A stretch of DNA of 27,885 nt from positions 62,001-89,885 of the forward strand of contig JBDREC010000029.1 of NCBI GenBank assembly GCA_043820105.1, in the 5' to 3' direction. The notes under the pieces are model-generated. The model made no database searches. It was not told where the DNA came from and worked only from the letters and a program-made list of their open reading frames with translations. Shown one piece after another: positions 4,729-21,369 of the stretch. The stretch comes from Pseudomonadota bacterium (lineage in GTDB: Bacteria > Bdellovibrionota_F > JAHFAK01 > JBDREC01). The first letter of the stretch is position 1; each line of letters starts with the position of its first letter. A program made the position numbers and the translations under genes.

Positions 4729-4737
4729 CTTGGTTTG

Positions 4738-4764: not shown

Positions 4765-4775
4765 GTCCTCTTACA

Positions 4776-4836: not shown

Positions 4837-4838
4837 TT

Positions 4839-5108: not shown

Positions 5109-5958
5109 TTGCTAACTCCCAGTTTTGTTTAATTTTTAAAATATGATTATAAACATCTTTTTTGGGGATATCATACCTTTTTGCAATAATTTCTACAATA
5201 CTTTTTTGTGTTTTTCCTTGTTTAATAAGCATTACTGCATCAGACTCAACTTCTTTTGTAAAAAGTTTCTTTTCCTTCTTTTTACCATCAACGATTATTA
5301 CAATCTCACCCTTTAATTCTTTTCTAAATATTTTTTCAAGAATTTCCGTTATCTGGCCATGCATAACTTCTTCAAATGATTTTGTAATTTCTCTGGCTAT
5401 TGTGCAGTTTCTGTTTCCCCAAATATCCAAAATAATTTCTAAACTTTTAGACAATCTTTTTGGTGATTCAAAAAATCCAATTGGAACTTCCATGTCCTTA
5501 TAATGTTCAAGTCTGTTTTCAGCGTCGCCTTTTTTCCTTGGGAAAAATCCCAAGAATAAGAATCCTGATAAATCAAAACCTGAAAGGTTATAAGCTGATA
5601 CAATTGAACATGGTCCAGGGATATCGATGACTGAGAGTTGTTGCTTATATGCTTCTTTAACTAAAACAGAACCAGGATCTGAAATGCAAGGAGTTCCAGC
5701 ATTTGTAACGATCGCAACATCTGAACCTCTTTTCAAAAGTTCAATAAGGCGTGATACTCGAGACTTTTCATTAAACTTATGATAACTTATAAGTTCATTT
5801 TTGATTTCATATTTTGCAAGCAATTTTTTTGTAACCCTGGTATCTTCACAAGCAATATAATCAACTTCCTTAAGGGTCCTGATTGCTCTTAAAGTAATAT
5901 CTTCAAGATTACCAATTGGTGTTCCAACTAAATATAATGTACCTTTTGATGTAGCCAT
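5095..5958 (-). CDS. rsmI: 16S rRNA (cytidine1402-2'-O)-methyltransferase
   Basis: LYLVGTPIGNLEDITLRA, ACEDTR, AGTPCISDPG, FESPKR, AREITKSFEE, KGEIV. Confidence 0.95.
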   Translation of the reverse strand: MATSKGTLYLVGTPIGNLEDITLRAIRTLKEVDYIACEDTRVTKKLLAKYEIKNELISYHKFNEKSRVSRLIELLKRGSDVAIVTNAGTPCISDPGSVLVKEAYKQQLSVIDIPGPCSIVSAYNLSGFDLSGFLFLGFFPRKKGDAENRLEHYKDMEVPIGFFESPKRLSKSLEIILDIWGNRNCTIAREITKSFEEVMHGQITEILEKIFRKELKGEIVIIVDGKKKEKKLFTKEVESDAVMLIKQGKTQKSIVEIIAKRYDIPKKDVYNHILKIKQNWELASEAH

Positions 5959-5959
5959 A

Positions 5960-6448
5960 TTAACTTCCTTTAAAAATTTTAATATTTCCTGCAGATTTTT
6001 TTTCTAAATCCGCTATTTTAACACCCAATCTAGGATGAACTAAATTAGGTTTTAATTCCAATAATAATGCTAATACAAATCTTCTTTCATGCATTCTTGG
6101 ATGTGGAACCAAAAGGCCTGGTTCCTCAACAATTCTTTCATCAAACAAAAGGATATCAATATCAATTGTCCTGGGAGCATAGGGAAACGACCTTTTTCGA
6201 CCCAGTAAATTTTCGATTCCCTGAATAAAGGACAAAAGTTTTTTTGGTTCAAGATCTGTCTGCACATGTAAAACCTGATTCAAAAATTCTGCTTGTGCAA
6301 CAGGACCTACAGGCTCAGTTTCATAAATATTAGATTTTGATTCAATTTTACATTTTTCACTAATCTTTTCAGCGGCTAGTTCCAGGTAGTCACCTCTTTT
6401 GCCTACATTAGAACCTAAACATAAATATGCACTAAAAAGATTACCCAT
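5960..6448 (-). CDS. folK: 2-amino-4-hydroxy-6-hydroxymethyldihydropteridine pyrophosphokinase
   Basis: YLCLGSNVG, YETEPVG, FLNQV, PRTIDIDIL, PHPRMHERRFVL. Confidence 0.95.
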   Translation of the reverse strand: MGNLFSAYLCLGSNVGKRGDYLELAAEKISEKCKIESKSNIYETEPVGPVAQAEFLNQVLHVQTDLEPKKLLSFIQGIENLLGRKRSFPYAPRTIDIDILLFDERIVEEPGLLVPHPRMHERRFVLALLLELKPNLVHPRLGVKIADLEKKSAGNIKIFKGS

Positions 6449-6451
6449 TTA

Positions 6452-6811
6452 TTATACATCCTCTTTGTAACATTTTACATAAGAAGTTTCGTTTTCAAAT
6501 AAAGTAACTTTCTTTAAAGTTATCGCTTCTGGTAAAACTTCACTAATTTTTAAAAAAATCCATTTTGAAATATTTTCAGCTGTTGGATTACTAACTACAT
6601 CATTTAAATAATTATGATCTAGTTTTGAAATAACGGCCTCATTTACAATACTTGAAAGTTCGTTAAAATCCATAATCATACCAGAATCCAGGACTTTACC
6701 TGTTACAGTAACCTTTAACTTGTAAGTATGACCATGAAGGTTTTCACACTTCCCTTTATAATTTATCAACTTGTGAGCTGAGTCAAATTTAAAAATTTTA
6801 TTTAAGTTCAT
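6452..6811 (-). CDS. queD: 6-pyruvoyl/6-carboxy-tetrahydropterin synthase family (COG0720), PTPS-I/III-type motif
   Basis: FDSAH, CENLHGHTY, MDF, LDHNYLN, NPTAENI. Lies between folP and folK. Confidence 0.88.
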   Translation of the reverse strand: MNLNKIFKFDSAHKLINYKGKCENLHGHTYKLKVTVTGKVLDSGMIMDFNELSSIVNEAVISKLDHNYLNDVVSNPTAENISKWIFLKISEVLPEAITLKKVTLFENETSYVKCYKEDV

Positions 6812-7626
6812 TTTCTATCCATAATTTTATCAATTAGTTCCAGGCTCAGCTTGGCTTCTTTAACATCATGTACTCGAAAAATTGATACTCCATTTAAAAA
6901 ACCAAAGACATTTACAGCGATAGTGCCTGGCAATCTGTTTTCAACTGAAACATCGCTAATATTTCCAATAAAAGCTTTTCTTGAAGTGCCCAATAAAACT
7001 GGCAAACCAAGGGCCGAAAAATTTTTAATTTCCCTTAAAATAGTAAGATTATGTTCAAGAGTTTTTCCAAAACCAATTCCTGGATCAATTGCAATATCTT
7101 TTACTCCAGCAGAGAGTAATTTTTCTGATTGTTTTTTTAAAAAAGCAAAAACTTCCTCGCTAACATTTTTTTCATATTTAGGATTTGCTTGCATATCTTG
7201 AGGATTTCCAAGCATGTGCATAATAATACAAGAAGCTTTATATTCAGAGACAATCTTAATCATTTGCTCATTAATAAAGCCTGTAATGTCATTAATAATT
7301 TTAACTCCATTATCAAGGCCCCATTTCGTTACTTCTGGCTTGTAAGTATCAAGAGAAATAGGTATTGATAAATTCTTTAAAAGCAAAGGCAATATTTTTT
7401 CAAGGCGCTCTATCTCTTCTTTTGCTGAGATTGCTAAAGATCCTGGTCTTGAACTTTCTGCACCAATATCAATAAAGGCAGCACCAAATTTTTCCATTTG
7501 CAAGGCATCTTCAAGGCATTTTTCTTCATTATTAAAATACTTTCCACCATCTGCAAAAGAATCAGGGGTAATATTTAAAATTCCCATGACAAGTGGTTTT
7601 GATTTATTTAATAACATTGTTGCCAT
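6808..7626 (-). CDS. folP: Dihydropteroate synthase
   Basis: MGILNITPDSFADGG, DIGAESSRPG, DPGIGFGK, GTSRKAF, FRVHDV. Confidence 0.96.
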   Translation of the reverse strand: MATMLLNKSKPLVMGILNITPDSFADGGKYFNNEEKCLEDALQMEKFGAAFIDIGAESSRPGSLAISAKEEIERLEKILPLLLKNLSIPISLDTYKPEVTKWGLDNGVKIINDITGFINEQMIKIVSEYKASCIIMHMLGNPQDMQANPKYEKNVSEEVFAFLKKQSEKLLSAGVKDIAIDPGIGFGKTLEHNLTILREIKNFSALGLPVLLGTSRKAFIGNISDVSVENRLPGTIAVNVFGFLNGVSIFRVHDVKEAKLSLELIDKIMDRK

Positions 7627-7696
7627 ATTTTATGTTAAATACCTTATTTTATTTAACTTTTGCCCTAAGTTTTATCCCATTCTAAAATGGCGGGTG

Positions 7697-7725
7697 TATA
7701 TAGCAGATTTTTTTGACAATTTCAA
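7697..7725 (-). promoter_or_regulatory. Putative sigma70 promoter for the folP operon
   Basis: Minus strand TTGAAA-17 nt-TATATA with TG at the extended -10 position. Confidence 0.3.
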
Positions 7726-7767
7726 GTTTTTATTGCAATTTTTTGTTTTTATTGAGGTTTTGGTGTT

Positions 7768-8043
7768 TTAAGTGAGACTTTCAAAAAAGCTTTTTACACG
7801 AACGGCCACATAAAAGACTGAAGATAGTAAGAAAATATAAAAATAAACTTTTTGTTTATTTCTTAGAATAATAACTATTAATATTATAAGTAAGGACAAA
7901 AATATAATAGCATTTGATGCTACAAAATCAGCCATTCTAATAAACTCATTTGCAGTACGAATATTTGCAAAGAAGCTAGTATGTTCAAGTATTGCATAAG
8001 AAACATTAATCAAGGAAAGAAATATGTAGAAAAAAGCTTTCAT
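7768..8043 (-). CDS. Small hypothetical membrane protein
   Basis: 91 aa with about three hydrophobic segments; AAGGA SD just after the ALDH stop. Confidence 0.55.
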   Translation of the reverse strand: MKAFFYIFLSLINVSYAILEHTSFFANIRTANEFIRMADFVASNAIIFLSLLIILIVIILRNKQKVYFYIFLLSSVFYVAVRVKSFFESLT

Positions 8044-8052
8044 AAATCCTTG

Positions 8053-9576
8053 CTAGCTAATATTAAAATCAATTCCTTGCGCAAGAGGAAGCTCCTTGCC
8101 AAAATTAACAGAACAGGTTTGTCTTCTCATGTAAAATTTCCATGCATCAGAGCCTGACTCTCTTCCACCACCAGTTTCTTTTTCTCCACCAAAGGCTCCA
8201 CCGATTTCAGCACCGCTTGTTCCTGTATTTATATTTGCAATTCCACAATCAGACCCAGCATATGAAACAAATTTTTCAGCTTCACAAAAGTTAGTTGTAA
8301 ACATTGAAGAAGATAGACCTTGAACAACATCATTTTGGATATTGATGGCTTCATCCATGTCTGCTGCTTCAATTAGGTAGAGTATAGGAGCAAAGGTTTC
8401 TTCCTGTACAATTTCCATATCATTTTTAGCCTTAACAATGGTTGGCTCTACATAACATCCAGAAGAAAATTTATCTGATTCTAATATCCTGCCACCACAA
8501 AGAATTTCTCCGCCTTGTTTTTTTACAAGCTCCAGGGCATTCATCATGTCATTAACAGCAGACTTATCCACCAAAGGTCCCATCAAGGTTGAAGGATCAA
8601 GAGGCGAACCAATTTTGACTTGTTCATATGCTGCTAATAAGCTTTTTGAAAATTTATCATAAACTGATTTATGCAATATTAATCTTCTAGTTGTGGTGCA
8701 TCGTTGTCCTGCTGTTCCCACTGAACCAAAAACTGTAGCCCTAAGAGCCATGTCCAGGTTTGCACTGTCTGAAACTAATAAAGCATTGTTTCCGCCGAGT
8801 TCTAAAATAGTCTTTCCAAGTCTTGCTCCAACTACTGCTCCAATTCTTTTTCCCATTTTACAGGAACCTGTTGCTGAGATCAAAGGAATGTTTTTATCAG
8901 CAATCATTTTTTCACCAATCGTACTGCCTCTACCAATAACCATGCCCATGATTGGTGGAACATTATTTTTCTCTAAAACATCTGTTATAATATTTTGAAC
9001 TGCAATAGCTGTTAGTGGAGTTTTTGAGGAAGGTTTCCAAATAACTGGATCGCCGCAAACTGCTGCAATAAAAGCATTCCATGCCCAAACCGCGACTGGA
9101 AAATTAAATGCAGTTATAACACCGACAACTCCTAAAGGATGCCACATTTCTCTTATCACATGCTCTTGTCTCTCACTGCTCATAGTAAGGCCGTAAAGTT
9201 GCCTTGAAAGACCAACTGCAAAATCAGCCATATCGATCATTTCCTGAACTTCACCTTCACCTTCAGCTATAATTTTCCCCATTTCATAAGAAACAAGTTG
9301 CCCCAGTGCTTTCTTTTTTTCTCTTAGCACCATCCCCATTTGTCTTACAATTTCTCCCCTTTTAGGAGCTGGTATTTTTCTGAATTCTTTAAAGCCATTA
9401 TTAAGATTGGCCATAACTTTATCATAGTCTGCTTCTGTAGCCATTTTAACTTTTGCTATTTCTTTTCCATCAACAGGAGAAACCGAAACAAGCATATCAC
9501 CATTTGTTTCATGCCATCCGTCAGAATATGCACCACTATTTATTTCTTTGATGCCTAGTTCTTTTAAAAAATCCAT
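8053..9576 (-). CDS. Aldehyde dehydrogenase, ALDH7 / piperideine-6-carboxylate dehydrogenase type
   Basis: ITAFNFPVAVWAWN, LELGGNNA, GTAGQRCTT (catalytic Cys), ETFAPIL, GAEIGGAFGGEKETGGGRESGSDAWK. Confidence 0.92.
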   Translation of the reverse strand: MDFLKELGIKEINSGAYSDGWHETNGDMLVSVSPVDGKEIAKVKMATEADYDKVMANLNNGFKEFRKIPAPKRGEIVRQMGMVLREKKKALGQLVSYEMGKIIAEGEGEVQEMIDMADFAVGLSRQLYGLTMSSERQEHVIREMWHPLGVVGVITAFNFPVAVWAWNAFIAAVCGDPVIWKPSSKTPLTAIAVQNIITDVLEKNNVPPIMGMVIGRGSTIGEKMIADKNIPLISATGSCKMGKRIGAVVGARLGKTILELGGNNALLVSDSANLDMALRATVFGSVGTAGQRCTTTRRLILHKSVYDKFSKSLLAAYEQVKIGSPLDPSTLMGPLVDKSAVNDMMNALELVKKQGGEILCGGRILESDKFSSGCYVEPTIVKAKNDMEIVQEETFAPILYLIEAADMDEAINIQNDVVQGLSSSMFTTNFCEAEKFVSYAGSDCGIANINTGTSGAEIGGAFGGEKETGGGRESGSDAWKFYMRRQTCSVNFGKELPLAQGIDFNIS

Positions 9577-9593
9577 TGAACACTCCTTGGTTT

Positions 9594-9705
9594 AAGTGGT
9601 AAGTGGTAAGTGATAAGTGGTAAGTGGTAAGTGGTAAGTGGTGTAAAAAGTACCGTGTACAGAGAGAAAAGGTTCTTACGACTTACGACATACGACTTAC
9701 GACTT
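9594..9705. repeat. Inverted heptamer cassette (AAGTGGT)7 - spacer - (CTTACGA)4
   Basis: Units at 9594-9642 and 9675-9705. The arms are complementary at 6 of 7 positions. Fills the trxA-ALDH spacer. Confidence 0.92.
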
Positions 9706-10032
9706 TTAAAGGTTTTTATTTATCATCGAAATAATATTTTCCTTAGGAGCGGCTCCAACCAGCTGGTCTGTAACCTGTCCATCTTTAAAAAGCATAAGTG
9801 TGGGAATTCCCTTAATACCATATTTGCTTGGTGTAAGATTATTGTCATCTACATTTACTTTGCAAAATTTAACATTTCCACCCATTTCTTCTGCTATTTC
9901 ATCAATTGTAGGTGCTATAGCTTTACAAGGAGCACACCAAACAGCCCAAAAATCAACCAGAACAGGCTTATCAGAGTTTATAACCTCTTCATCAAATTGA
10001 TTATCATTTATTTCCTTAACGTAATCGGACAT
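9706..10032 (-). CDS. trxA: Thioredoxin
   Basis: VLVDFWAVWCAPCK, GIKGIPTLMLFKDG; GGAGG SD. Confidence 0.95.
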   Translation of the reverse strand: MSDYVKEINDNQFDEEVINSDKPVLVDFWAVWCAPCKAIAPTIDEIAEEMGGNVKFCKVNVDDNNLTPSKYGIKGIPTLMLFKDGQVTDQLVGAAPKENIISMINKNL

Positions 10033-10062
10033 AATTCCTCCAAAAAGTAATAAGTTGTTTTA

Positions 10063-10178
10063 CAGTGGTAAGTGGTAGGTGGTAAGTGGTAAGTGGTAAA
10101 TAAAATTAAATACATTTATTGAAATGTAAATAATTTTAAATTTTACAACTTACAACTTAAAACTTACGACTTAAAACT
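10063..10178. repeat. Inverted heptamer cassette (AAGTGGT)5 - palindromic spacer - (CTTAMRA)5
   Basis: Units at 10063-10097 and 10142-10178. The spacer is itself palindromic (TAAAATTA..TACATTT attg AAATGTA..TAATTTTA). Confidence 0.9.
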
Positions 10179-10228
10179 GACCTAAAAGGTACCAAAATCA
10201 AAATTTCAGATCAATAAAAAATGTAACT

Positions 10229-10729
10229 TTATTTGATTAAAATTTCAACGGACCGAATTTTTGAAATTTTCCATATCCCCTCGTTTTTATTGAATTCAAT
10301 AAACATTTCTTCAACATGACTAAAGGTATCTTGCCCTTTTGATTTTCCCTTTGCTTTAAGTGTTAAATCAATATGAGCTCTTGATTGATTTAAAATTTCC
10401 ATTTTCACATCCATAAATTTAACATTAAGCTTCTCAACTTTTGATCTTAAAGCCATGTAATAATTTTTTATGACTTTATTATCATAGTCACCATCTAAAT
10501 TTATTTCCCTTACAGACACCTTACATGGGTTGCTAAAAAGATTTGCAAATTGTCCTGAATTTTGTGCAAGCCCAATTATCGAATCATTAGAGTCCTTTGA
10601 CATTAGATTTGAAAGCTTAAAAAGTTGTTTGTTTATTCTCGTTTTTTCATTTGGAAAAATAACTTTATACGCTAAATAAGCAAATCCTATAAGTAAAATT
10701 CCAATAAAAATTCTTTTTAAAATTACCAT
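10229..10729 (-). CDS. Membrane-anchored hypothetical protein, possibly NTF2-like fold
   Basis: N-terminal TM helix; C-terminal beta pattern ending FNKNEGIWKISKI, typical of NTF2-like proteins. Overlaps the lepB stop. Confidence 0.65.
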   Translation of the reverse strand: MVILKRIFIGILLIGFAYLAYKVIFPNEKTRINKQLFKLSNLMSKDSNDSIIGLAQNSGQFANLFSNPCKVSVREINLDGDYDNKVIKNYYMALRSKVEKLNVKFMDVKMEILNQSRAHIDLTLKAKGKSKGQDTFSHVEEMFIEFNKNEGIWKISKIRSVEILIK

Positions 10730-11223
10730 GACACTGATCCTACAATCCTTGTTAAAGGCGTTTGCCCAAAAACATGTTGCTCAATAGGTGTTGATCTATT
10801 GTCACCAATTACATATATATTTCCTTCTTCCACTTTCCTTGCTTCTAGGTTCCAATTCAAATTATAAAAAAGATAAGGCTCCTTTAATCTTTTTCCATTA
10901 ATAAGTAAGTTGCCGTTTTTAAACTCAACTGTTTCACCTGAAAAGGCAACAATTCTCTTCATAAGCATTACTTTTTTTCCAGCATATTTTATTAATACAA
11001 CATCATATCTTTTGGGTTTTGAATAGATATACTTCACTTTATTACAAAAATTCCACTCTCCATTTTCATAAGTGGGTTCCATGCTAAAGCCATCAATATA
11101 TATGGGTGTAAATACATATCCAAAAAATAAATATGTAAACAGAACTAAAGCAAAGACTCTTAACAAAAAAAACAGTGTTATTTTTGGAAACAAAAATTGC
11201 TTTAGCCTTTTATTTTTAAACAT
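10723..11223 (-). CDS. lepB: Signal peptidase I (S26), short single-TM type
   Basis: GFSMEPT (Ser), MKRIVA (Lys), YVIGDNRS. ATG at 11223 with TAAGGTG SD. Confidence 0.9.
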   Translation of the reverse strand: MFKNKRLKQFLFPKITLFFLLRVFALVLFTYLFFGYVFTPIYIDGFSMEPTYENGEWNFCNKVKYIYSKPKRYDVVLIKYAGKKVMLMKRIVAFSGETVEFKNGNLLINGKRLKEPYLFYNLNWNLEARKVEEGNIYVIGDNRSTPIEQHVFGQTPLTRIVGSVSW

Positions 11224-11229
11224 CAATCA

Positions 11230-11306
11230 CCTTATTCCCTTATTCCCTTGTTCCCTTGTTCCCTTGTTCCCTTGTTCCCTTGTTCCCTTGTTCCCTTGTT
11301 CCCTTA
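11230..11306. repeat. Octamer tandem repeat (TTCCCTTR)9
   Basis: Nine units at 11235-11306, seven TTCCCTTG and two TTCCCTTA, directly upstream of the lepB SD. Confidence 0.95.
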
Positions 11307-11419
11307 TACATATTATTTTCATATTTATCAAAACAAAAATTAATTCTTGAAATTTTTCAAAAAATATAAGAATGATGTGTCGCATTGAATTTTATTGCTT
11401 ACACTAAAGAGGAGATTCT

Positions 11420-12877
11420 ATGGAAATTAATAATTCTAAAACAAAAGATGTTTTGCATTGGTTTAAAGAAATAAGCAAAATCCCAAGATGCTCAAAAAAT
11501 GAGGCTGCGATATCCAAATGGCTAGAAAACTGGGCTCAAACTCACAATCTAGAATCCAAATTTGATGATTTTGGAAATATCCTTATAAAAGTCCCAGCAA
11601 GCCCTGGCTGTGAAAATGCTCCAGCCATTGTTCTTCAGGGTCACATGGATATGGTTTGCGAAAAAAACAATGATTCAAATCATGATTTTACTAAAGACCC
11701 AATCGAATTTATTTTTGACGGTGAATGGCTTAAGGCAAACAAAACAAGCCTTGGCGCTGATAATGGAATTGCAATTGCGATGGCATTAACAGCTGCCCTT
11801 GATAAAGAAATAAAGCATCCAAAACTTGAATTGCTTTTTACCCTTGATGAAGAAACTGGCTTAAATGGTGCTACTAACCTTGGCACAGATTTGCTTGAAG
11901 GTAAAATTTTATTAAACATTGATTCTGATGAAGTGGGCATATTTACTATAGGTTGCGCTGGTGGAAAAGATACAGACATTAGTATTCCTTTAGAATTTGA
12001 AGATATAAATAAAGACAAAAAACCTTATTTAATAAAAGCTTTTGGCATGAAGGGTGGTCATTCCGGAACAGATATTATTTTGGATAGAGCAAATGCAATT
12101 GTGGTCCTTGCTCGCACATTAAATGACTTAAGAAAAAATTCTTGCTTTAACATATTAAGCATTAATGGAGGAACAGCTCATAATGCTATTCCTAGAGACG
12201 CTCAAGCTCTTATATTATTAAATCAGGATGATTATGCTAAAACACAGGAAAAACTTCATGCCTTTGAAGACATATTAAAAACAGAATATAAATTAATGGA
12301 TCCTGGTCTAAGTCTTTCAATTGAAGAAGCAACATTCAATGCAGGAGATACTAAAGCCTGTACTTGCTTGTCTTCAAAAAAACTTATCAACACTATTCTT
12401 GGCTTTCCACATGGGGTTGCTCATATGGATAAGGGAGCTGAAAATCTTGTTCAGACTTCAAGCAATTTGGCGATTGTAAAGATAGTAAATGATAATCTTG
12501 AAGTTCTTTCAAGCCAGAGAAGTTCTTTAACATCCAGACTTCTAGGTTTATCACATAAAATTGAATCAATCGCTGCTGTTGCTGGCGGTACCAGCACCAC
12601 TGGAAATGGCTATCCGCCATGGGAAGCAAACTGGGATTCAAATCTATTAACCGTTTGTAATTCTGTTTATAAAGAAATATTTAATAAAGATGCAGTAGTT
12701 GATGTAATTCACGCTGGTTTAGAATGTGGAATTATTGGAAACAAATACCCTGGCATGGAAATGGTTTCTTTTGGACCAACAATTAAAAACGCTCACTCTC
12801 CGGATGAGAAATTAAAGATTTCAGACATTGAGAAAGTCTATGACCTTGTTGTTGGAATAATGAAAGCCTATCTATAA
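11420..12877 (+). CDS. pepD: Aminoacyl-histidine dipeptidase (M20C)
   Basis: IPRCSKNE, LQGHMDMVCEK, LGADNGI, DEETGL, GGHSG, IHAGLECG, HSPDE; GAGGAG SD. Confidence 0.94.
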   Translation: MEINNSKTKDVLHWFKEISKIPRCSKNEAAISKWLENWAQTHNLESKFDDFGNILIKVPASPGCENAPAIVLQGHMDMVCEKNNDSNHDFTKDPIEFIFDGEWLKANKTSLGADNGIAIAMALTAALDKEIKHPKLELLFTLDEETGLNGATNLGTDLLEGKILLNIDSDEVGIFTIGCAGGKDTDISIPLEFEDINKDKKPYLIKAFGMKGGHSGTDIILDRANAIVVLARTLNDLRKNSCFNILSINGGTAHNAIPRDAQALILLNQDDYAKTQEKLHAFEDILKTEYKLMDPGLSLSIEEATFNAGDTKACTCLSSKKLINTILGFPHGVAHMDKGAENLVQTSSNLAIVKIVNDNLEVLSSQRSSLTSRLLGLSHKIESIAAVAGGTSTTGNGYPPWEANWDSNLLTVCNSVYKEIFNKDAVVDVIHAGLECGIIGNKYPGMEMVSFGPTIKNAHSPDEKLKISDIEKVYDLVVGIMKAYL

Positions 12878-12960: not shown

Positions 12961-13191
12961 ATGGAAAATCTTCTTCGAAAAATAGTGGAAAAGATTGTCG
13001 TTGATCCAGATCAAATCGAAATAGAAGCTATCCATGGTGAACAAGCCTATATTCTTAAATTAAAAGTTGCAAAAGAAGATACTGGCAGAATTATTGGAAA
13101 AAGCGGTAGAAATGCCGAAGCAATCAGAACTATACTCCAGGCAGTGGGAGCAAAAAAAGGTCATAAAGTAATAGTTGAAATCCTTGATTAA
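12961..13191 (+). CDS. khpA: KH-domain RNA-binding protein (KhpA/UPF0109)
   Basis: 76 aa; LKVAKEDTGRIIGKSGRNAEAIRTIL with GxxG loop. Confidence 0.9.
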   Translation: MENLLRKIVEKIVVDPDQIEIEAIHGEQAYILKLKVAKEDTGRIIGKSGRNAEAIRTILQAVGAKKGHKVIVEILD

Positions 13192-14222
13192 TTTTCTTTT
13201 GGATTAAATCTTTTCCTTAAGCCTTCACCAAGCAAGTTATACCCATAAACTATAATAAATATTGCAAACCCTGGACTTAATACCCATGGAAAGTCTGTTA
13301 TGTTCCTGATATTTTGTGCTTCTTTTAGCATTGTCCCAAGACTTGCTACAGGCTCAGCTATGCCAATACCAAGAAAGGATAAAGTAATTTCACCAATAAT
13401 ATAAAATGGAATTATCAGAACAGAGTTTACAATAATAAACCCCAGCAAATTCGGTAAAATGTGTTTAATAATAATTTTGCTATCTTTAAGACCAATTACT
13501 TTTGCAGCAATAATATATTCAGAAGTCTTTAAAGACTTAACCATATTTCGAATAACCCGCGAAAATCCTGCCCATGAAATAAAGGATAAAAGAATTATTA
13601 AAATAAGATAAATATAGGTTGATGATAAGTGAATTGGAAAAAGATTCCTCAAACTTAAAAGCAAGTAAAAAGCAGGAATTGACATTAGCACTTCAATTAA
13701 ACGCATGATTAGAAAATCTAATTTTTTACCATAATAACCAGAGATCATGCCTATAATCAAACTTAATATAACGGTTATTAAAGTTCCAATTAAACTTATT
13801 AAAATTGAAATTTGAATTCCATATAATAGTCTTGAAAAAATATCTCTGCCAAAACCATCAGATCCAAGCAAAAATAATCGCACGCTTTTATGCACAAGAA
13901 AAAGATGTCTTTTACATTTGAAAAGCCCCAAAAGTGTGTATTCGTCGCCTGAGGCAAAAAAAGCAATTGGATAAATTTTATTTTTATCTTCTAAATATTC
14001 AAACCTTCCTGTTTCTGTTGTAAGCCTTTTGCTCGCGTAAACAAAGGGTTTGCGAAGTTTATTGTTATAATCGAAAATATGAATTTTTAAAAACATTGGG
14101 CCATGAAAGCTTTGATCTCTAAATTGATTATTAAAATGATAGGGCGCTAAAAAGCCAGAGAATATACAAATTATGTACAAGGGAATTAGGATAACAAGTG
14201 CCTTTGCGATGATCCTGTTCAT
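13188..14222 (-). CDS. Peptide/nickel ABC transporter permease, OppC/DppC type
   Basis: LLGSDGFGRDIFSRLLYG, EAA loop EYIIAAKVIG, KHILPN, LSFLGIG, NLLGEGLR. Confidence 0.92.
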   Translation of the reverse strand: MNRIIAKALVILIPLYIICIFSGFLAPYHFNNQFRDQSFHGPMFLKIHIFDYNNKLRKPFVYASKRLTTETGRFEYLEDKNKIYPIAFFASGDEYTLLGLFKCKRHLFLVHKSVRLFLLGSDGFGRDIFSRLLYGIQISILISLIGTLITVILSLIIGMISGYYGKKLDFLIMRLIEVLMSIPAFYLLLSLRNLFPIHLSSTYIYLILIILLSFISWAGFSRVIRNMVKSLKTSEYIIAAKVIGLKDSKIIIKHILPNLLGFIIVNSVLIIPFYIIGEITLSFLGIGIAEPVASLGTMLKEAQNIRNITDFPWVLSPGFAIFIIVYGYNLLGEGLRKRFNPKEN

Positions 14223-15193
14223 AGCACCTCGCTTGCTTTTACTTTAGGATCATTAAGCACTAGAAGTAAGTCCGCTAATAAATTTCCCAAAATTAAAACT
14301 ATAGCAGAAAACAAAACAACTCCTGTTAAAAGAGGTGTATCCTGATTCAAAAGGGCATCCAACCCAAGACGAGCCATACCAGGCCAGGCCAAAACGATTT
14401 CAACAATTAATGAGCCATTAATTATGCTCACCAAAGAATAAGAAAAAAGCACAATCATTGGATTTAAAGCAGCCCTTAAAGCATGGTTTGTAATTATGGC
14501 TTTTTCTGTTAAGCCTTTTGATTTTGCAGTTAAAATATAATTATTATCTAGTACATCTATCATTGATGCTCGCATCTGCCTTATATATAAAGCAGCTGTT
14601 GAAAAAGTAAGAACAAACACTGGCAAGAAAAGATGATTAGCTCGATCCATAATCTTGCTTATAAAAGAAAGATCTTCATAATTATAACTCTTCATTCCCC
14701 CAACTGGAAACCATCCTGTTTTTATGGCAATAAAAAGAACAATTAGGGCTAAGAAAATTTTTGGCATTGATATTCCAAAATTTGATATCATTGATATTGC
14801 TTTATCAAACCATGAATCCTGCTTAAACGCGCAAATCGACCCAAACAAAATTATTATCACCCATGAAATAAAGAGCGAAATTATGGCAAGACTTAAAGTG
14901 TTTGATACTCTATCAAAGATAAGAGAAGATACTGAGGCTTTATTTGAAAAAGAATAGCCAAAATTACCAAGCACCGCATTCTTTAACCAAAGCAAATATC
15001 GTATAACAAATGGCTTATTAAGCCCAAAATCATTTTCATATGTTTCAATTAACTCCGTTGAAATGGCAGGATTTTGCTTTAAACTGCTTAAGTAGTTTCC
15101 TGGTGACAATTCTTCAAAAAAGAAAGTTAGAAAAGATACAATAATTATTACTGGAATTGTAGCTAAAAATCTTTTTATTAAACTAATAAGCAT
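14219..15193 (-). CDS. Peptide/nickel ABC transporter permease, OppB/DppB type
   Basis: FGLNKP, GNFGYS, YILTAKSKGL, HALRAA, IVEIVLAWPGMARL, GNLLADL, DPKV. Confidence 0.92.
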   Translation of the reverse strand: MLISLIKRFLATIPVIIIVSFLTFFFEELSPGNYLSSLKQNPAISTELIETYENDFGLNKPFVIRYLLWLKNAVLGNFGYSFSNKASVSSLIFDRVSNTLSLAIISLFISWVIIILFGSICAFKQDSWFDKAISMISNFGISMPKIFLALIVLFIAIKTGWFPVGGMKSYNYEDLSFISKIMDRANHLFLPVFVLTFSTAALYIRQMRASMIDVLDNNYILTAKSKGLTEKAIITNHALRAALNPMIVLFSYSLVSIINGSLIVEIVLAWPGMARLGLDALLNQDTPLLTGVVLFSAIVLILGNLLADLLLVLNDPKVKASEVL

Positions 15194-15343
15194 AAAATAA
15201 TTTTGATAAATAATTTAGACAAAGTCAAAGATCAAATTTAATAAATTTGACAAAATCCTTTAAATAAACAAAAAGAACGTAGTTAGGCTAAAAAATAGTT
15301 TATTAACATAAAGTAAAGTAAAGTAACAAGATCAACATTAATA

Positions 15344-16180
15344 ATGAACAAAAAGTTTTACTATTATAAAATTTTCAATTTAGATATAAAGTCACAAACT
15401 CCCATCAAGGCTTTGGATGAAGTAAAGCAACCATCCTCTATGCCAGATATTTTGATTACAATTGGAAAAACTCCTAATACTTTGCTCAAACCATTAAGAA
15501 ACAAAAATCTCTACTATCAAATGGCTGAAAATGAATTCTTGTTTTTTAATGAAAGTCTTGGATTAAAATTTTACGCAAAAAATGGAACAGAAATTATTAT
15601 AGACAAAGATTGTATGGGTGATACAGACAATGTGTCTCTTTTCTTGCTTGGCAGTGTAATGGGAGCCACCCTTTATATGCGCAATTATCTTCCATTGCAT
15701 GCTTCAACCATCTTAAGCTCAAGAGGGGCTGTTATGTTTACGGGCATTTCAGGAGTCGGAAAATCTACCATAGCTTATGCATTATATAAAAGAGGATATA
15801 AAGTAATAAGTGATGACATTGCTCCTTTAAAACTAGAAAATAATAAGCTTTTTCTTTACTCCTCATATCCAAAGATGAAACTTTGGGAAAATGCACTTGA
15901 TCTAAATAAAGTCTCTGGAAATTTTCCTCAAATCAAAGTTTCCTTTAACAAATATTATGTTTCTTATGATCCGCTTGATCAAAATCAAGCTCTTCCAATT
16001 TACAAAATATATAATCTTGAAATACATAATGACCATGCTGTTTCAACTCTCGATAAAACTATAGAAAAAGACAGATTTAAAATTATTTATGCAAACTCTT
16101 ATAGAAATAATTATATAAATGGTCTTAACAAGCAGAGCACTTTTTTTGAAATTGCTACAAAACTAGCAAGATATCCCTGA
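15344..16180 (+). CDS. HPr kinase-related kinase of the lasso-peptide (PadeK-like) type, possibly C-terminally truncated
   Basis: YKIFNLDIKS N-terminus, FLLGSVMG, PLHAS, Walker A GISGVGKST, ISDD, YPKMKLW. Confidence 0.82.
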   Translation: MNKKFYYYKIFNLDIKSQTPIKALDEVKQPSSMPDILITIGKTPNTLLKPLRNKNLYYQMAENEFLFFNESLGLKFYAKNGTEIIIDKDCMGDTDNVSLFLLGSVMGATLYMRNYLPLHASTILSSRGAVMFTGISGVGKSTIAYALYKRGYKVISDDIAPLKLENNKLFLYSSYPKMKLWENALDLNKVSGNFPQIKVSFNKYYVSYDPLDQNQALPIYKIYNLEIHNDHAVSTLDKTIEKDRFKIIYANSYRNNYINGLNKQSTFFEIATKLARYP

Positions 16181-16181
16181 T

Positions 16182-17834
16182 TTGCCTTTAATATTAAATC
16201 TTATTAGAAATTTTTATGATAATAAAAATCTTTTATCTGGCTTTGAGAACTACTTTCATGAATATTTAGAAGACAGGCCATTAAATTACTTTCAACTGCT
16301 CAACTCCGTTAAAAAAATTGAAAAAATGGTGGAGAACTTGTCTTCATCTTTTCTCAAAGCCAATATGATTGGTTTTACCTGCTATCAAACAAACCTTTTT
16401 GCTTCTTTTTTATGCGCTTTATATTTAAGACAAAAAGGCTACAATAAACCAATTATTTTTGGAGGTCCTCAGGCTAGCCAGAGCAAAAACACTCAAAAAC
16501 TTTTATTAAAAACAAAAGCTGCTGATGTTATTGTTATTGGTGAAGGCGAAATAGCTTGGCCTGAGATAATTAAAACGTATAAAAAAGAAAAAAAGTTTAC
16601 TATTCCCAATACAATATACTTTGACCATGAAGCTGAAATGTTCATTGAAAACCCTAAAATTCCTGCGATTCTTAATAATTTACCTGATCCTGATTTTTCT
16701 TGTCTTGAGCTATCAAAATATCCTTATAAAGAAAGCACTTTACCCTTATACGCTTCTCGAGGATGCCCTCATTCCTGTGCTTTTTGTAATGAAACAACCA
16801 TGTGGCGACCATATCGTCAACTTAGCCCTGAACAGGTTATAAAAAGAATGATAAGCCTAAACAAAAAACATGGAGCCTTTAGGTTTTATTTTACAGACAG
16901 CCTATTAAACGGCTCCATTAAATGGTTAAATGAATTTTGCGATTTGCTTATAAATAAATCCCTGGATTTTCAGTGGTATGGTTATTTTAGCACTAACCTG
17001 AATTTTGAATTAGCAAGCAAGCTGCAAAAAGCAGGACTTGTCAGGGCCTTTATTGGCATGGAATCTGTAAGTTCTAAATTACTAAAGAATATGCAAAAGA
17101 AAAAAACCTCAAGCCAAAATATAAGCGCAATTAAAGAAATGCTAAAAGCGAAAATACCACTGGAAATAAGTCACCTGATTGGATTTCCAGGAGAATCTGA
17201 AAAAGATTTTAAAATTAATTATAAATATCTTTTGAATCTTAAAAAAGATTATCCAAACCAGTTTTGTTTAAATTTTGAGCCTTTTCAATTGGTCCCTGGA
17301 AGCAAAGTCTTTGAATCTCCTGATAACTATGGCATTTTAGTAAAAGGTTGGAGTGCAAAAATAATCAATATTGTTCCTGAGCTTTCTGAAATTGTTCAAA
17401 ACATTCCAATGAAAATCATCGCATCTCCTTCTGTTGATACCATAAGAAAAAGACAAATGTTTTTAAAAACTTTTTTTGAAAACAAAAAATCAGAAAAAAA
17501 CATCTTTTTATCAAAAACCATGGTGCCCCTCTTAATAAAAAACCATAAACAACTAGAAGGAAAAAATCGTTTAAAGTTAGTCGATATAGGTCAAAAATAT
17601 TTCCATTTTAAAGATAAGGATGATTTATTAATTCAGATTCCTCCAAATAAAGTTATTAAAATAACTACCCGTGAAAAATGGATGATTGATAGATTAGCTG
17701 GAAAAACATCTATTGATGAAATGATTTTGGATTATTCTGCAAGATGGAAAGAAAAAGAAAATATTAGTAGAAATTTATTGTCTTCTTTATTAGACAAGTT
17801 ATTAAAAAATGGAATATGGTATAAAATTACATGA
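16182..17834 (+). CDS. Cobalamin-binding radical SAM enzyme with C-terminal PqqD/RRE-like domain; start uncertain
   Basis: B12-domain motifs IGFTCY, IIFGGPQ, VIGEGE; LPDPDF; SRGCPHSCAFC (CxxxCxxC at 16764-16787); FTDS, IGMES, IGFPGESE. The last ~85 aa show a winged-helix RRE pattern. Confidence 0.88.
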   Translation: MPLILNLIRNFYDNKNLLSGFENYFHEYLEDRPLNYFQLLNSVKKIEKMVENLSSSFLKANMIGFTCYQTNLFASFLCALYLRQKGYNKPIIFGGPQASQSKNTQKLLLKTKAADVIVIGEGEIAWPEIIKTYKKEKKFTIPNTIYFDHEAEMFIENPKIPAILNNLPDPDFSCLELSKYPYKESTLPLYASRGCPHSCAFCNETTMWRPYRQLSPEQVIKRMISLNKKHGAFRFYFTDSLLNGSIKWLNEFCDLLINKSLDFQWYGYFSTNLNFELASKLQKAGLVRAFIGMESVSSKLLKNMQKKKTSSQNISAIKEMLKAKIPLEISHLIGFPGESEKDFKINYKYLLNLKKDYPNQFCLNFEPFQLVPGSKVFESPDNYGILVKGWSAKIINIVPELSEIVQNIPMKIIASPSVDTIRKRQMFLKTFFENKKSEKNIFLSKTMVPLLIKNHKQLEGKNRLKLVDIGQKYFHFKDKDDLLIQIPPNKVIKITTREKWMIDRLAGKTSIDEMILDYSARWKEKENISRNLLSSLLDKLLKNGIWYKIT

Positions 17835-18262
17835 GGTTTTTACTAAAATTTTTAAAATTAAAAAACAAAAACAAATTACTAGCAATTGAAGTCGCCTTTT
17901 TTTTATTTATAGCGAGGTTATCCATTTTATTTTTGCCTTATAGATTTTTAAAACCAGTGCTTGGAAAATACAAAAAAAGTAATGATTCTCAAAATGTTGA
18001 CCCGAAAGAATTAAGAAGAATTTCAAATTATATACATAAAATTTCTAAATATATGCCTGTAAAATCTAATTGTTTACCCCAGGCAATTACAGCCAAATGT
18101 ATGCTTAAAGCCAGAAACATCAACAGCACTCTATACATTGGACTGGGAAAAGATAAAAAAAACCATCTTTTACAAGCTCATGCATGGTTGAAAGTAAATG
18201 AATTTTCCGTCACTGGAGGAATAAATAACACAGAGTATTCAGAGGTAGCTTATTTTGGCTAG
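17831..18262 (+). CDS. Lasso peptide biosynthesis B2 protein (transglutaminase-like leader peptidase)
   Basis: NCLPQAITA (catalytic Cys), LYIGLG, LQAHAWL (His), VTGG. ATGA overlap with the rSAM stop. Confidence 0.9.
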   Translation: MRFLLKFLKLKNKNKLLAIEVAFFLFIARLSILFLPYRFLKPVLGKYKKSNDSQNVDPKELRRISNYIHKISKYMPVKSNCLPQAITAKCMLKARNINSTLYIGLGKDKKNHLLQAHAWLKVNEFSVTGGINNTEYSEVAYFG

Positions 18263-20006
18263 CATTAAAGCAAATATTGATTTACTTTTAATTTATGTAA
18301 AAGATCTACTGCTTTTTACAAAGTTAAAGTTTTTACTTCTTTTTGTAATGTCCCTAATAAATGCCCTTGGACAGGGCTTGAATTTTTATATGCTTATTCC
18401 AATGTTTAGCATTTTAAACATAGAAAACACAAATGAAGCAGGCAAGCTCAATAAAGTCAGTCAATATATTTATGAATTTTACAATTACTTCAATGTTCCA
18501 GTAAGCATCGCCTCTATCATAATAGTTTTTTTGATTCTTAGTTCTATAGTTTTTTTCTTGAGATATAAGCAAACTATTTTAACCTCAGACATTCAACTAA
18601 CTTATACTAGCAGACTGCAAAAAAAGCTTTTTGAGTCCTTGATATTCGCTGAATGGACCTTTGTTTCAAAGCAAAAGTCCTCCAATATTAGCCAGATTCT
18701 AACATCTGATCTTCCCATTGTTTCAACAGGAACATATTTTGCGCTGAGGATGTTCACAAATTTCGCGTTAATTTTGGGCTATATTTTTTGGGCCATGAGT
18801 ATTTCAATAAAATTAACCCTTGCTACACTTTTAATATCAATATTAATTTTTTATGTTTTTAAATTCTATTTTTCATTAGCTCTTGAAACTGGCACCTTCA
18901 TGAGAGAATCAAGATCTAATCTTTTTTCAATTTTAATGGATCATTTAAGTGGAGTAAAGCTGGCCAAAAGTTATGGAAAAGAAGAAATAGAAAAACAAAG
19001 ATTTCAAGAAACAGTTGATAATATTTCATACAAATCTCTTGATGTAATAAGATACAATTCCAAAACACAATTAATTTATAATGTTCTAACAACAATTATT
19101 TTAGGCCTAATCCTTTATTATTCCTTAGAAATAATTGAATTGCCTTTGGTTAATATTGCAGTATTTCTCTTGATTTTTTCTAAGTTAATACCATGTCTTT
19201 CAACCTTGCAAAGCAATATTCAAAAACTAATTAGCATGCTTCCTTCTTTTTCTGCTACAGAAAACCTTTATAAAAATGCTATTAAACACAAAGAAGATAT
19301 CTTTAATAATAAAAATTATTCTACAGTAAATATAGATTTTAAAAATGAAATCAGATTAAAAGATATTTCATTTAAATATGAAAACGAGAAAAACTCCTTT
19401 TCCTTGAATAGAATAAATTTTCAAATACCCGTAAAAAAAATAACAGTAATAGAAGGTAAGTCTGGAAAAGGAAAAACAACTCTCCTTGATATTATCGCTG
19501 GAATATTAAAACCCGATATAGGTGAAATATTTATTGATGATACAAAACTTGATAAAAACAATTTATATTCATGGAGACAAAAAATATCATACTTGCCTCA
19601 GGAAGTATTTTTGTTTCACGACACGATAAAAAACAACCTTCTCTGGAGCAATGAAAATGCAAGTGAAGCAGAAATCATAGAAGCATTAAAGCTTTCCTCT
19701 GCTTATGATTTTGTTAATTCGCTTCCACAGGGAATAAATACTATTGTTAAAGATAGAGGGCAAAGATTATCAGGTGGAGAAAGACAAAGAATCGCTATTG
19801 CCAGGACCCTAATAAAAAAACCAGAAATAATTATCCTTGATGAAGCAACTAGTTCTCTTGACGAGAATAATGAAAAAATTATTTTTAATACAATTTTAAA
19901 ACTTCGAGGCAAATTCACAATTATTATTGCTAGTCATAGTAAAAATTTAGTAAATCTTGCAGATAATGTAATTAATCTTAATAAGAGTGTTTCCTCTTTA
20001 GAATAA
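18255..20006 (+). CDS. ABC exporter, permease plus ATPase, lasso-cluster D type
   Basis: Multi-TM N-terminal domain, Walker A GKSGKGKT, YLPQE, LSGGERQRIAIAR, ILDEATS. Overlaps B2. Confidence 0.92.
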   Translation: MASIKANIDLLLIYVKDLLLFTKLKFLLLFVMSLINALGQGLNFYMLIPMFSILNIENTNEAGKLNKVSQYIYEFYNYFNVPVSIASIIIVFLILSSIVFFLRYKQTILTSDIQLTYTSRLQKKLFESLIFAEWTFVSKQKSSNISQILTSDLPIVSTGTYFALRMFTNFALILGYIFWAMSISIKLTLATLLISILIFYVFKFYFSLALETGTFMRESRSNLFSILMDHLSGVKLAKSYGKEEIEKQRFQETVDNISYKSLDVIRYNSKTQLIYNVLTTIILGLILYYSLEIIELPLVNIAVFLLIFSKLIPCLSTLQSNIQKLISMLPSFSATENLYKNAIKHKEDIFNNKNYSTVNIDFKNEIRLKDISFKYENEKNSFSLNRINFQIPVKKITVIEGKSGKGKTTLLDIIAGILKPDIGEIFIDDTKLDKNNLYSWRQKISYLPQEVFLFHDTIKNNLLWSNENASEAEIIEALKLSSAYDFVNSLPQGINTIVKDRGQRLSGGERQRIAIARTLIKKPEIIILDEATSSLDENNEKIIFNTILKLRGKFTIIIASHSKNLVNLADNVINLNKSVSSLE

Positions 20007-20013
20007 AGAAACT

Positions 20014-21369
20014 CTATTTTTTCAATTTGTCTTTTACATAGCTCATAGCTTCTTCTTTGTCTTTAAATCTTCCTTCTAACTGCATATCATATACTTCCTT
20101 CAAAATCTCACCCATTATCGGTGATTCAGCGATTCCAAGCTCTAGTAAATCCTTGCCATCAACAAGTTTTTTGGGAAGCACATAGTTGTTTTCATTTTTT
20201 AATTCATTAATTTTTTCCATGACAAAATTGTAGTTATCCATTTTTCTATGACTTGATAGACAGTCCAGGCGGTGAAGCTCTAAGTGCAAATCAAAGCGCT
20301 CAAGGCTTATAAATTTTCTGAAGGTAGAAAGTTTCATTTTTTTTACGTTCATAAATCTCATATGATTTACAATTAGAGACAAAACTAAATCTGTCTCTTT
20401 ATTGGACAGCTTTAGCCTTTCACAGATTGGCTTTGAAAGCTGGTAAGACTCTTTATCATGATTGTTAAATCTTATTCTATCAGTAAGCTCCATTGTTGTT
20501 GCTTTGCCAATGTCATGCAATAAAACAGCCAAAAATAACGCAAACTCAGATCCAACTTTTGCTAGTCTAAGCATTTCATAGACATGATTAAACACATTTC
20601 CTTCAGGATGAAATTGTTTTGGTTGCTCGATTTCTCTTAAAACAAAGACCTCTGGAAGAATTTGTTTTAATAAACCAGTATCAAAAAGAAGTTCAAGACC
20701 AAGATGTGGATTGGGTCTTGTAAGCATCTTTTCCAGCTCTTCTCTTATTCTTTCACTTGATACCAGGTTGATTTGGTCAACCATTTCCTTAATAGCCGCT
20801 AGTGTTTCAGGCTCAATTTTAAAGTTAAGAGTTGAAGCAAACCTGACCGCCCTGAATAGCCGAAGCTTGTCTTCATTAAATCTTTGTCTTGGATCTCCAA
20901 TACATGCGAGAACTTTTTTATCAAGGTCCTGAACTCCACCAACACAGTCTGTTATTTCATGCGAATCTGGATCAAACAAAAGACCATTGATTCTAAAATC
21001 TCTTCTTTTTACATCCTGAACTTCATCTGTAAACTCTACAGCGCTTGGCCTTCTGCCATCTTGATAATCAATATCTTTTCTAAAAGTAGATACTTGAAAT
21101 TGATCTTTTCCCATTAATACAATTACAACTCCAAAAGATATGCCAACAGGAATAGTATTATTAAATATTTTTTGCACCTCGCTGGCTTTTGCATCTGTAG
21201 CAATATCAATATCAGAAGAATCCAGACCTAAAAGCAAGTCTCTTGCAAAACCGCCAACAAAAAAGGATTTAAAGCCATTTTTTGCAAGAAGTGCATGCAC
21301 TTTTAGAGCATTATTATATAAACTAGTTTGAAATTGTTTTAATTCTTTTTTGATTTTAACTTTATTCAT
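20014..21369 (-). CDS. cca: CCA tRNA nucleotidyltransferase with HD domain
   Basis: FVGGFARD, DIDIATD, RRDFRING, EDKLRLFRAVRF, SSERIREEL, HPEGNVFNH, LLHDIGK. Confidence 0.9.
   Translation of the reverse strand: MNKVKIKKELKQFQTSLYNNALKVHALLAKNGFKSFFVGGFARDLLLGLDSSDIDIATDAKASEVQKIFNNTIPVGISFGVVIVLMGKDQFQVSTFRKDIDYQDGRRPSAVEFTDEVQDVKRRDFRINGLLFDPDSHEITDCVGGVQDLDKKVLACIGDPRQRFNEDKLRLFRAVRFASTLNFKIEPETLAAIKEMVDQINLVSSERIREELEKMLTRPNPHLGLELLFDTGLLKQILPEVFVLREIEQPKQFHPEGNVFNHVYEMLRLAKVGSEFALFLAVLLHDIGKATTMELTDRIRFNNHDKESYQLSKPICERLKLSNKETDLVLSLIVNHMRFMNVKKMKLSTFRKFISLERFDLHLELHRLDCLSSHRKMDNYNFVMEKINELKNENNYVLPKKLVDGKDLLELGIAESPIMGEILKEVYDMQLEGRFKDKEEAMSYVKDKLKK

Follow-up and report, generated by a model that had tools for sequence, protein, structure and literature searches.

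Gene layout of the cassette

The window analysed here, a stretch of 27,885 nucleotides (positions 62,001 to 89,885 of contig JBDREC010000029.1, assembly GCA_043820105.1, Pseudomonadota bacterium), contained a cassette of four genes on the plus strand, in which proteins of the lasso peptide type were joined by a radical S-adenosylmethionine (SAM) enzyme of the cobalamin (B12) type. Judged by its sequence, the cassette is a diverged partial paralogue of a lasso cluster on another contig of the same genome, C76. The first gene (15344-16180) encoded K', an HPr-kinase-like paralogue of a lasso peptide kinase (278 aa). The second (16182-17834, with a TTG start) encoded the class-B-like radical SAM enzyme, called rSAM below (550 aa), the third (17831-18262) encoded B2', a lasso leader peptidase of the transglutaminase-like cysteine protease kind (143 aa), and the fourth (18255-20006) encoded D, a half-size ATP-binding cassette (ABC) exporter with a transmembrane and a nucleotide-binding domain and without a peptidase domain (583 aa). 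A single base separated the stop codon of K' (TGA, 16178-16180) from the start of rSAM, and the following genes overlapped by 4 nt (rSAM and B2') and 8 nt (B2' and D). The four genes formed one tightly coupled unit. Homology reached the final residues on both sides of the precise rSAM-B2' junction, which on this comparison is native.

All four frames were open, with zero internal stops, and the expected motifs were kept: the P-loop of K', the CxxxCxxC motif of rSAM, the Cys and His of B2', and the Walker and signature motifs of the ABC protein. No lasso cyclase was found in the window, and none of its open reading frames (ORFs) fitted the precursor pattern YxxP...[GASC]x6-8[DE]...S. The 150-bp gap between K' and a divergent OppB-like gene (15194-15343), presumed to be the promoter region, contained no plus-strand ORF of at least 20 aa. 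The flanking genes were housekeeping genes on the minus strand, encoding OppC/OppB-type permeases upstream (13188-15193) and a CCA tRNA nucleotidyltransferase downstream (20014-21369). The GC content of the cassette (0.27-0.32) lay inside the range of the window (0.26-0.39). The source was a single metagenome-assembled genome (MAG) of 3.81 Mb in 113 contigs with a completeness of 92.9%.

The B2' protein matched the lasso_biosyn_B2 model NF033537 with 82.3 bits (cut-off 33) and Transglut_core3 at 1.6e-19, and its residues Cys81 and His117 were invariant in 20 of 20 aligned B2 proteins. Among four genomes from the phylum, B2 was found solely in the source genome. D matched ABC_membrane (6e-22) and ABC_tran (9.6e-32), and it was the only full-length copy of the lasso-linked exporter found in the assembly.

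K' matched Hpr_kinase_C at 9.8e-7 (28.9 bits, under the cut-off of 33.3) and TIGR04352 (HprK_rel_A) at 9.9e-9, which was also under the cut-off. When a profile of K' homologues was compared with known structures, HPr kinase/phosphorylase was matched at 1e-9. The P-loop GISGVGKST and a DD motif were retained. With its 278 aa, K' was shorter than its nine aligned homologues (295-317 aa). It ended in A-T-K-L-A-R-Y-P-stop, whereas the K of C76 and all nine homologues ran 22-28 residues further, and the conserved C-terminal tail of ~22 aa with a near-invariant Arg, present in 9/9 of these homologues, was absent from it. Of the features used to recognise a lasso kinase, K' thus had the HprK-like P-loop core and homologues that clustered with lasso genes, and it lacked the full length with the C-terminal tail. 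The ScmC model gave only 13.2 bits on K' against a cut-off of 125. A search for related loci with a two-sequence K alignment returned zero matches.

Relationship to a lasso cluster on contig C76

A tblastn search of the four cassette proteins against the whole assembly revealed the paralogues on C76 (region C76:78000-93000, positions 5532-11694 of the region, minus strand). This cluster had the gene order C-ATPgrasp-A-K-sulfotransferase-B1-B2-D' on one strand and was complete except for D. It encoded a cyclase (Asn_synthase and GATase_7, 623 aa), an ATPgrasp_ST protein (407 aa), a 55-aa precursor ORF whose product had a YxxP leader motif and Ser as its last residue, K (300 aa), a sulfotransferase (Sulfotransfer_1 at 1.1e-27, 286 aa), B1 (PqqD at 5.5e-16, 93 aa) and B2 (143 aa). 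It ended in D', an ABC stump of 72 codons followed by unrelated fragments on the plus strand. Split HAD-phosphatase-like fragments adjoined the stump on that strand, at positions 4991-5107 and 5296-5535 of the region.

The two kinases shared 64% identity, and the nearest outside protein (P0224) was 50% and 55% identical to the two copies. B2' and the B2 of C76 were 66% identical. Residues 1-72 of D were 46% identical to the stump, and no further ABC piece was found on C76. At the DNA level, the identity was 69.6% over 705 bp for K and 70.9% over 567 bp for B2 and the start of the ABC gene. The assembly contained one cyclase and one precursor of the lasso pattern, both on C76. Since K' and B2' are paralogues of genes within a lasso cluster elsewhere in the genome, the grouping of the cassette would not be due to chance. 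In the preliminary description, made from the window alone, four coupled plus-strand genes had been placed between minus-strand housekeeping genes and their K-[x]-B2-D order had been related to paeninodin-like lasso clusters. The ORFs, domains and flanks agreed with the former, and the genome's own C76 cluster matched the latter.

The radical SAM enzyme and its C-terminal domain

The rSAM protein matched Radical_SAM at 5.6e-17, with the CxxxCxxC motif formed by C195, C199 and C202, and it matched the B12-binding domain at 2.4e-5 (24.6 bits, under the cut-off of 32.1). The best curated families were TIGR03975 (125.2 bits, cut-off 281.85) and PhpK (118 bits, cut-off 600), and the ApyD model NF050148 scored 90 bits (cut-off 750). 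By these scores, rSAM is not a member of any of the three families. Full-length relatives were rare: only four, at 36-39% identity, were found among 5.8 billion proteins, and a profile search of 1.84 billion representatives added about a dozen further full-length members of the family, against a background of 2,390 B12-type radical SAM matches at E <= 1e-30. No orthologue was found among 40 relatives, in which the best match had 32% identity, and a related-locus search from the single rSAM sequence returned distant relatives only.

An AlphaFold (AF2) model of rSAM from a 24-sequence alignment had a predicted local distance difference test score (pLDDT) of 90.6 and a predicted template modelling score of 0.87; an earlier model from a 5-sequence alignment (pLDDT 57.5) was set aside. 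In a Foldseek search the best match of the model was MgmA (5.6e-17), followed by OxsB, TokK, TsrM and CysS, all of which are cobalamin-dependent radical SAM enzymes. The C-terminal domain (residues 463-548, 17568-17825 on the plus strand) adopted the PqqD or lasso B1 fold of a RiPP recognition element (RRE; RiPP, ribosomally synthesised peptide with post-translational modifications). With VIA-align, which is independent of Foldseek, this domain matched lasso B1 in complex with its leader (6jx3_B) with a Z score of 10.8 and a root-mean-square deviation of 2.2 Å over 84 of 85 residues, and the next matches were PqqD (5sxy, Z 10.0) and TbiB1 with its leader (5v1u, Z 9.7). A comparison with three PqqD proteins by hhalign gave a probability of 48% (E 1.8e-4), and the Pfam PqqD model had no match at E <= 1 on the last 111 residues of rSAM. 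On the modelled structure, rSAM therefore ends in a true RRE, a leader-binding domain of the B1 type that is matched by fold only.

Because this RRE stands directly upstream of B2', the B1 slot of the cassette is filled by a domain instead of a gene, in keeping with the earlier placement of the radical SAM enzyme in that slot. Of the profiles named in the preliminary description, Radical_SAM and Transglut_core3 were matched, whereas B12-binding stayed under its cut-off and PqqD gave no match. The RRE was conserved across the rSAM orthologues, one of which had a weak PqqD match, and for that reason it was not captured from the lasso cluster. When B2' was modelled together with the RRE (residues 455-550), the complex prediction gave a score of 0.00 and a mark of 0.32, which weighs neither for nor against binding.

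At its N-terminus, rSAM lacked ~57-76 residues that were found in every full-length relative inspected. It started at position 58 of the 607-position profile, and the first 76 alignment columns (MPxF..PPLG..AYLK..TDFRL) were missing. The lost segment probably corresponds to the first beta-alpha-beta unit of the cobalamin-binding Rossmann fold. In agreement with this assignment, the structural alignments of rSAM with TsrM, TokK and MgmA began at residues 40-53 of the targets; the alignment with OxsB began at residue 165. The coverage of the B12-binding Pfam model was dropped as a sign of the N-terminal loss, since full-length orthologues also matched only positions ~39-120 of it.

The junction between the kinase and radical SAM genes

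The end of K' and the start of rSAM met in a putative deletion scar (16170-16181, plus strand), which consisted of the 8-nt sequence GATATCCC (16170-16177) and the adjoining TGA. These 8 nt encoded the end of K' (R-Y-P) in one frame and D-I-P of rSAM in the +1 frame, and they formed a microhomology in which the homology to K ended and the homology to rSAM began at once. The rSAM frame was open from 16167 and read Q-D-I-P-D-L(TTG)-P-L-I-L, and the orthologues read E-I-P-D-L-P-L-I-L. The TTG at 16182 would thus be an internal Leu codon of the ancestral rSAM gene, and no Shine-Dalgarno-like motif was found before it.

A variant of this junction was found in a groundwater metagenome. A contig of 217 nt (depth 2), assembled from one of two runs, matched 15992-16177 of the window with zero differences, left it exactly at 16177/16178 and continued with 31 other letters. 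In the K frame these letters encoded M-T-T-I-A-R-P-E-K-V, and the K of C76 has M-T-T-I-T-R-P-Q-R-T at this place; by hand count, 20 of the first 30 bases were identical between the two, in line with the ~70% identity of the K genes. At least one environmental variant therefore keeps the K' tail. A 24-mer specific for this alternative form was absent from the assembly, and no contig bridging either K'|rSAM (16177/16178) or rSAM|B2' was found in the two groundwater runs, each of which covered a small share.

Taken together, the loss of the K' tail, the loss of the rSAM N-terminus, the internal TTG, the microhomology and the metagenomic K-tail variant indicate that the assembled haplotype carries a real deletion of ~240 bp or more. 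Such a deletion would have cost K' its 3' end and rSAM its 5' end, and both proteins are therefore probably impaired in the assembled copy. As an idea only, re-initiation at the TTG could still allow rSAM to be translated. The stop codon of K' lies in the context CCC-TGA-T (16175-16184) with rSAM in the +1 frame, and such CCC-stop contexts tend to frameshift. If the ribosome slipped by +1 on CCC, a K-rSAM fusion of 828 aa would result, which is likewise offered as no more than an idea of how the two proteins could be joined.

Genomic neighbourhoods of the homologues

The neighbourhoods of 80 K-homologue loci from species-representative genomes were surveyed with phmmer and hmmsearch at the level of ORFs within ~8 kb of K. 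PqqD was found at 67/80 loci, a cyclase at 60, B2 at 51, a sulfotransferase at 25 and ATP-grasp at 8; the raw count for ABC proteins was 55, of which 11 were due to cross-matching of the P-loop of the K ORF itself. By these counts, the C76 cluster is an ordinary member of a widespread kind. A B12-type radical SAM gene was found within 8 kb of K at one locus only (L079). It was rejected as lasso-linked, since it adjoined genes for a family-21 glycosyltransferase and an LPG_synthase_TM protein instead of lasso genes, surroundings which we take to resemble a hopanoid-type neighbourhood. A cluster-linked B12-type radical SAM gene was thus present at 0/80 lasso-kinase loci.

The contexts of the rSAM orthologues were analysed at five loci (L015, L016, L017, L018 and L104). 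B2 was found at none of the five, and a distant HprK-like gene was found at three (L015, L017 and L104), in which the orthologues shared 33-45% identity with the rSAM of the window. L016 and L018 were of the same locus type, with rSAM alone. The recurrence of K-rSAM-B2-D that the preliminary description proposed to look for was therefore not observed, and the arrangement is a singleton within everything searched. The same description had held that its proposal would fall if radical SAM homologues never lay beside B2 or kinase genes. This held true for B2 and not for kinase-like genes. In full-text searches of the literature, supplementary cluster tables aside, no paper was found in which a cobalamin radical SAM enzyme belongs to a lasso cluster.

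L015 (an Omnitrophota MAG, 1963-10996) and L017 (a metagenome contig, 107-8166) shared one conserved, apparently unnamed RiPP-like cluster. Both encoded a methyltransferase of 471 aa, a ScmD-like PqqD protein and a Cys-rich peptide of 73 aa, together with three SPASM radical SAM enzymes, an ABC transporter and a ScmC/HprK-like P-loop protein of 306 aa; the B12-type rSAM-RRE gene was transcribed divergently. The two Cys-rich peptides aligned over 73 of 73 residues with 74% identity. At L104 (3-5624), one strand carried genes for a SPASM radical SAM enzyme, a 59-aa ORF, an HprK-like protein of 320 aa, a protein of 252 aa, rSAM-RRE and a protein of 271 aa that was formyltransferase-like by eye only. 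The HprK-like protein of L104 matched the lasso-kinase profile with a probability of 96% over 71 core columns in hhalign.

Two further observations concerned more distant relatives of rSAM. At L003 of Candidatus Scalindua rubra (8001-10947), a distant B12-type radical SAM gene (27% identity) was followed by an Asn-synthetase-like gene with 22% identity to the C76 cyclase, and no B2 was found there by tblastn. The proteins P0077, P0082, P0084 and P0085 (1,820-2,331 aa) each contained 4-5 separate matches to the B12-type radical SAM profile and thus represented tandem multi-rSAM fusions.

In the source genome, contig C111 (7785-8883, minus strand) encoded a true ScmC (TIGR04249, 235 bits against a cut-off of 125) followed directly by a 69-aa peptide with repeated Cys-containing units rich in Gly and Ala, and tblastn revealed no SPASM or B12-type radical SAM match on this 18-kb contig. 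Weak tblastn matches to HprK-like, PqqD-like and SPASM proteins lay side by side on C89 (~27.6-29.4 kb) and C4 (~45.7-46.4 kb), and likewise on C102 (~9-12.9 kb) and C10 (~152.5-153.9 kb). The genome may therefore hold several more RiPP-type loci with radical SAM enzymes. The Omnitrophota 73-aa peptide had no tblastn match in the genome (best E 0.17), and the ScmA model TIGR04252 found nothing at E <= 0.1.

Discussion

The cassette can be compared with several known systems. Paeninodin-type lasso clusters have the order C-A-K-B1-B2-D, their kinase acts on the linear precursor by phosphorylating its C-terminal Ser, and a putative sulfotransferase is present in some clusters of the kinase type, as described in PMC8498205. 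The cassette resembles these clusters in the order of K, B2 and a D-type ABC gene and in the RRE immediately upstream of B2, but it differs from them in the lack of a cyclase and a precursor, in the presence of B1 as a domain of rSAM instead of a separate gene, and in the missing tail of K'. Because it has neither cyclase nor precursor, the cassette falls short of a self-standing lasso cluster in two defining respects.

ApyD of the aminopyruvatide pathway is an RRE-containing, cobalamin-dependent radical SAM C-methyltransferase that makes beta-methyl-Tyr, according to PMC11117315. It shares with the rSAM of the window a B12-type domain, a radical SAM core, an RRE and a RiPP context, which makes C-methylation of a peptide the default guess for the chemistry. 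The two enzymes are not orthologous, however; ApyD has P450 and MNIO partners in place of the lasso-type K, B2 and D, and the B12 domain of rSAM is short at the N-terminus. TIGR03975 and PhpK are both class B radical SAM families, but neither model includes the C-terminal RRE that was matched in the rSAM of the window. In the SynChlorMet-type cassettes (ScmA-F, TIGR04248-04252) and at L015, L017 and L104, rSAM orthologues stand beside SPASM radical SAM enzymes, ScmD-like PqqD and a ScmC/HprK-like protein. Since these orthologues adjoin ScmC/HprK-like proteins, the pairing of a B12-type rSAM-RRE with an HprK-like protein can be said to recur. B2 is missing from these clusters, and the relationship of K' to their P-loop protein is only distant. 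Membership of the cassette in the SynChlorMet type was not found, with no SPASM enzyme present and K' under the ScmC cut-off. By sequence comparison, the rSAM of the window is part of a small, unnamed family, and the remaining members of this family are found alongside SPASM/ScmC-type systems.

We tentatively favour the reading that the cassette serves the C76 lasso pathway as a satellite module, damaged in the assembled haplotype, although as a whole it falls a little short of an even chance of being right. The C76 cluster would have been partially duplicated to give K'-x-B2'-D, and the genes for the sulfotransferase and B1 would have been replaced by the B12-type radical SAM gene, which brought its own C-terminal RRE. 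The cassette would then most likely work in trans with the C76 cluster. As the C76 exporter is reduced to its 72-codon stump, D is assigned the putative role of exporting the C76 lasso peptide. B2' would remove the leader, with the RRE of rSAM standing in for B1 as the leader-presenting partner. Were the copy intact, the linear precursor would be phosphorylated by K' at its C-terminal Ser and would receive a radical modification from rSAM, most plausibly C-methylation, since other RRE-bearing B12-type radical SAM enzymes catalyse this reaction. In the haplotype as assembled, K' would have lost its 3' end and rSAM its 5' end through a deletion marked by 8 nt of microhomology. A product shifted by +80 and +14n Da, suggested in the preliminary description, is doubtful from the ORFs as assembled because K' lacks its C-terminal tail and rSAM its N-terminal beta-alpha-beta unit.

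Several points weigh against this reading. K' and B2' are intact at ~65% identity to copies already present on C76, which suggests a separate substrate rather than a simple back-up. The RRE has its orthologues in enzymes of non-lasso clusters, and its leader preference therefore need not be the YxxP of lasso peptides. rSAM keeps every column that is invariant in its four closest full-length orthologues, apart from the N-terminal loss it shows no sign of decay, and its translation from the TTG one base past the stop of K' is possible. The evidence for an undeleted haplotype is the single 217-nt contig at depth 2, the link in function between the two loci is drawn from their gene content, and an assembly of this completeness could have missed a second precursor or cyclase.

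The cassette could instead be a decaying relic, in which function was lost after the duplication and gene replacement, the K'/rSAM deletion was one step of the decay and at most the ABC exporter is still used. This is somewhat unlikely in our view, although several features speak for it: K' has lost the tail and near-invariant Arg found in all nine aligned homologues, rSAM has lost its N-terminal segment and native start codon with no Shine-Dalgarno-like sequence before the TTG, there is no local precursor or cyclase, and the gene arrangement is a singleton. The four open frames and the catalytic motifs kept in all four proteins argue for maintenance, as does a protein divergence of ~35% from the C76 copies without frame damage, which points to long purifying selection before the deletion. 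Furthermore, the C76 cluster needs an exporter. The retention of K' and B2' as distinct paralogues would fit an autonomous pathway without a cyclase. In it, K', rSAM-RRE, B2' and D would convert a non-lasso precursor from an unlinked gene, for example an orphan Cys-rich leader peptide of the genome, into a linear, radical-modified and perhaps phosphorylated product that is trimmed by B2' and exported by D. The rSAM orthologues do occur in non-lasso clusters with SPASM radical SAM enzymes, PqqD, HprK-like proteins and the 73-aa Cys-rich peptide, the RRE of the window is orthologous to the RREs of such clusters, and the true ScmC on C111 adjoins the 69-aa Cys-rich repeat peptide, with no SPASM or B12-type radical SAM match there. 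We consider this pathway unlikely: no precursor-like ORF lies inside or beside the cassette, neither the 73-aa peptide nor the ScmA model had a match in the genome, B2 accompanies a B1/PqqD gene and usually a cyclase across the 80 kinase loci, and K' and rSAM are truncated in the assembly.

The junction might also be an assembly artefact: in the real genome, K' would be full-length and lead into other sequence, and the rSAM-B2'-D block would belong elsewhere. In favour of this, the metagenome contig is identical over 15992-16177 and diverges exactly at the joint, no independent contig bridges 16177/16178, and the genome is assembled in 113 contigs. However, only 8 nt are shared at the joint, far shorter than the words that assemblers usually use, and both truncated genes end exactly at the limit of homology, as a real deletion would leave them. 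K' and B2'-D belong together, since B2' and D have their paralogues downstream of K on C76; in addition, the rSAM-B2' junction is precise and overlapping, the base composition is uniform and the alternative 24-mer is absent from the assembly. An artefact is accordingly very improbable.

To return to the satellite module favoured here, the locus shows how a RiPP pathway can be rebuilt in a modular way, as the leader-binding domain comes as part of a new enzyme and takes the exact slot of the old leader-binding gene. It also presents a pathway split over two loci, each of which is short of a part that the other has, namely the exporter in one case and the cyclase and precursor in the other. The value of the locus is tempered by the fact that it is a singleton arrangement in one MAG with a clipped assembled copy; the 55-aa precursor, the C76 enzymes and the rSAM of the window form a candidate set for bench work. 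Acetylation and citrullination are among the tailoring reactions of lasso peptides. Phosphorylation, glycosylation, methyl esters, hydroxylation and epimerisation are the tailoring described in PMC8498205. A more specific proposal, speculative and improbable as a whole, is that in the undeleted haplotype an rSAM-RRE from a SPASM/ScmC-type RiPP system replaced B1 and the sulfotransferase, hands the leader to B2' and C-methylates the lasso precursor. If this were true, the product would be the first lasso peptide with a cobalamin-dependent radical modification, and the pathway would be a natural hybrid of two RiPP machineries, run from two loci.

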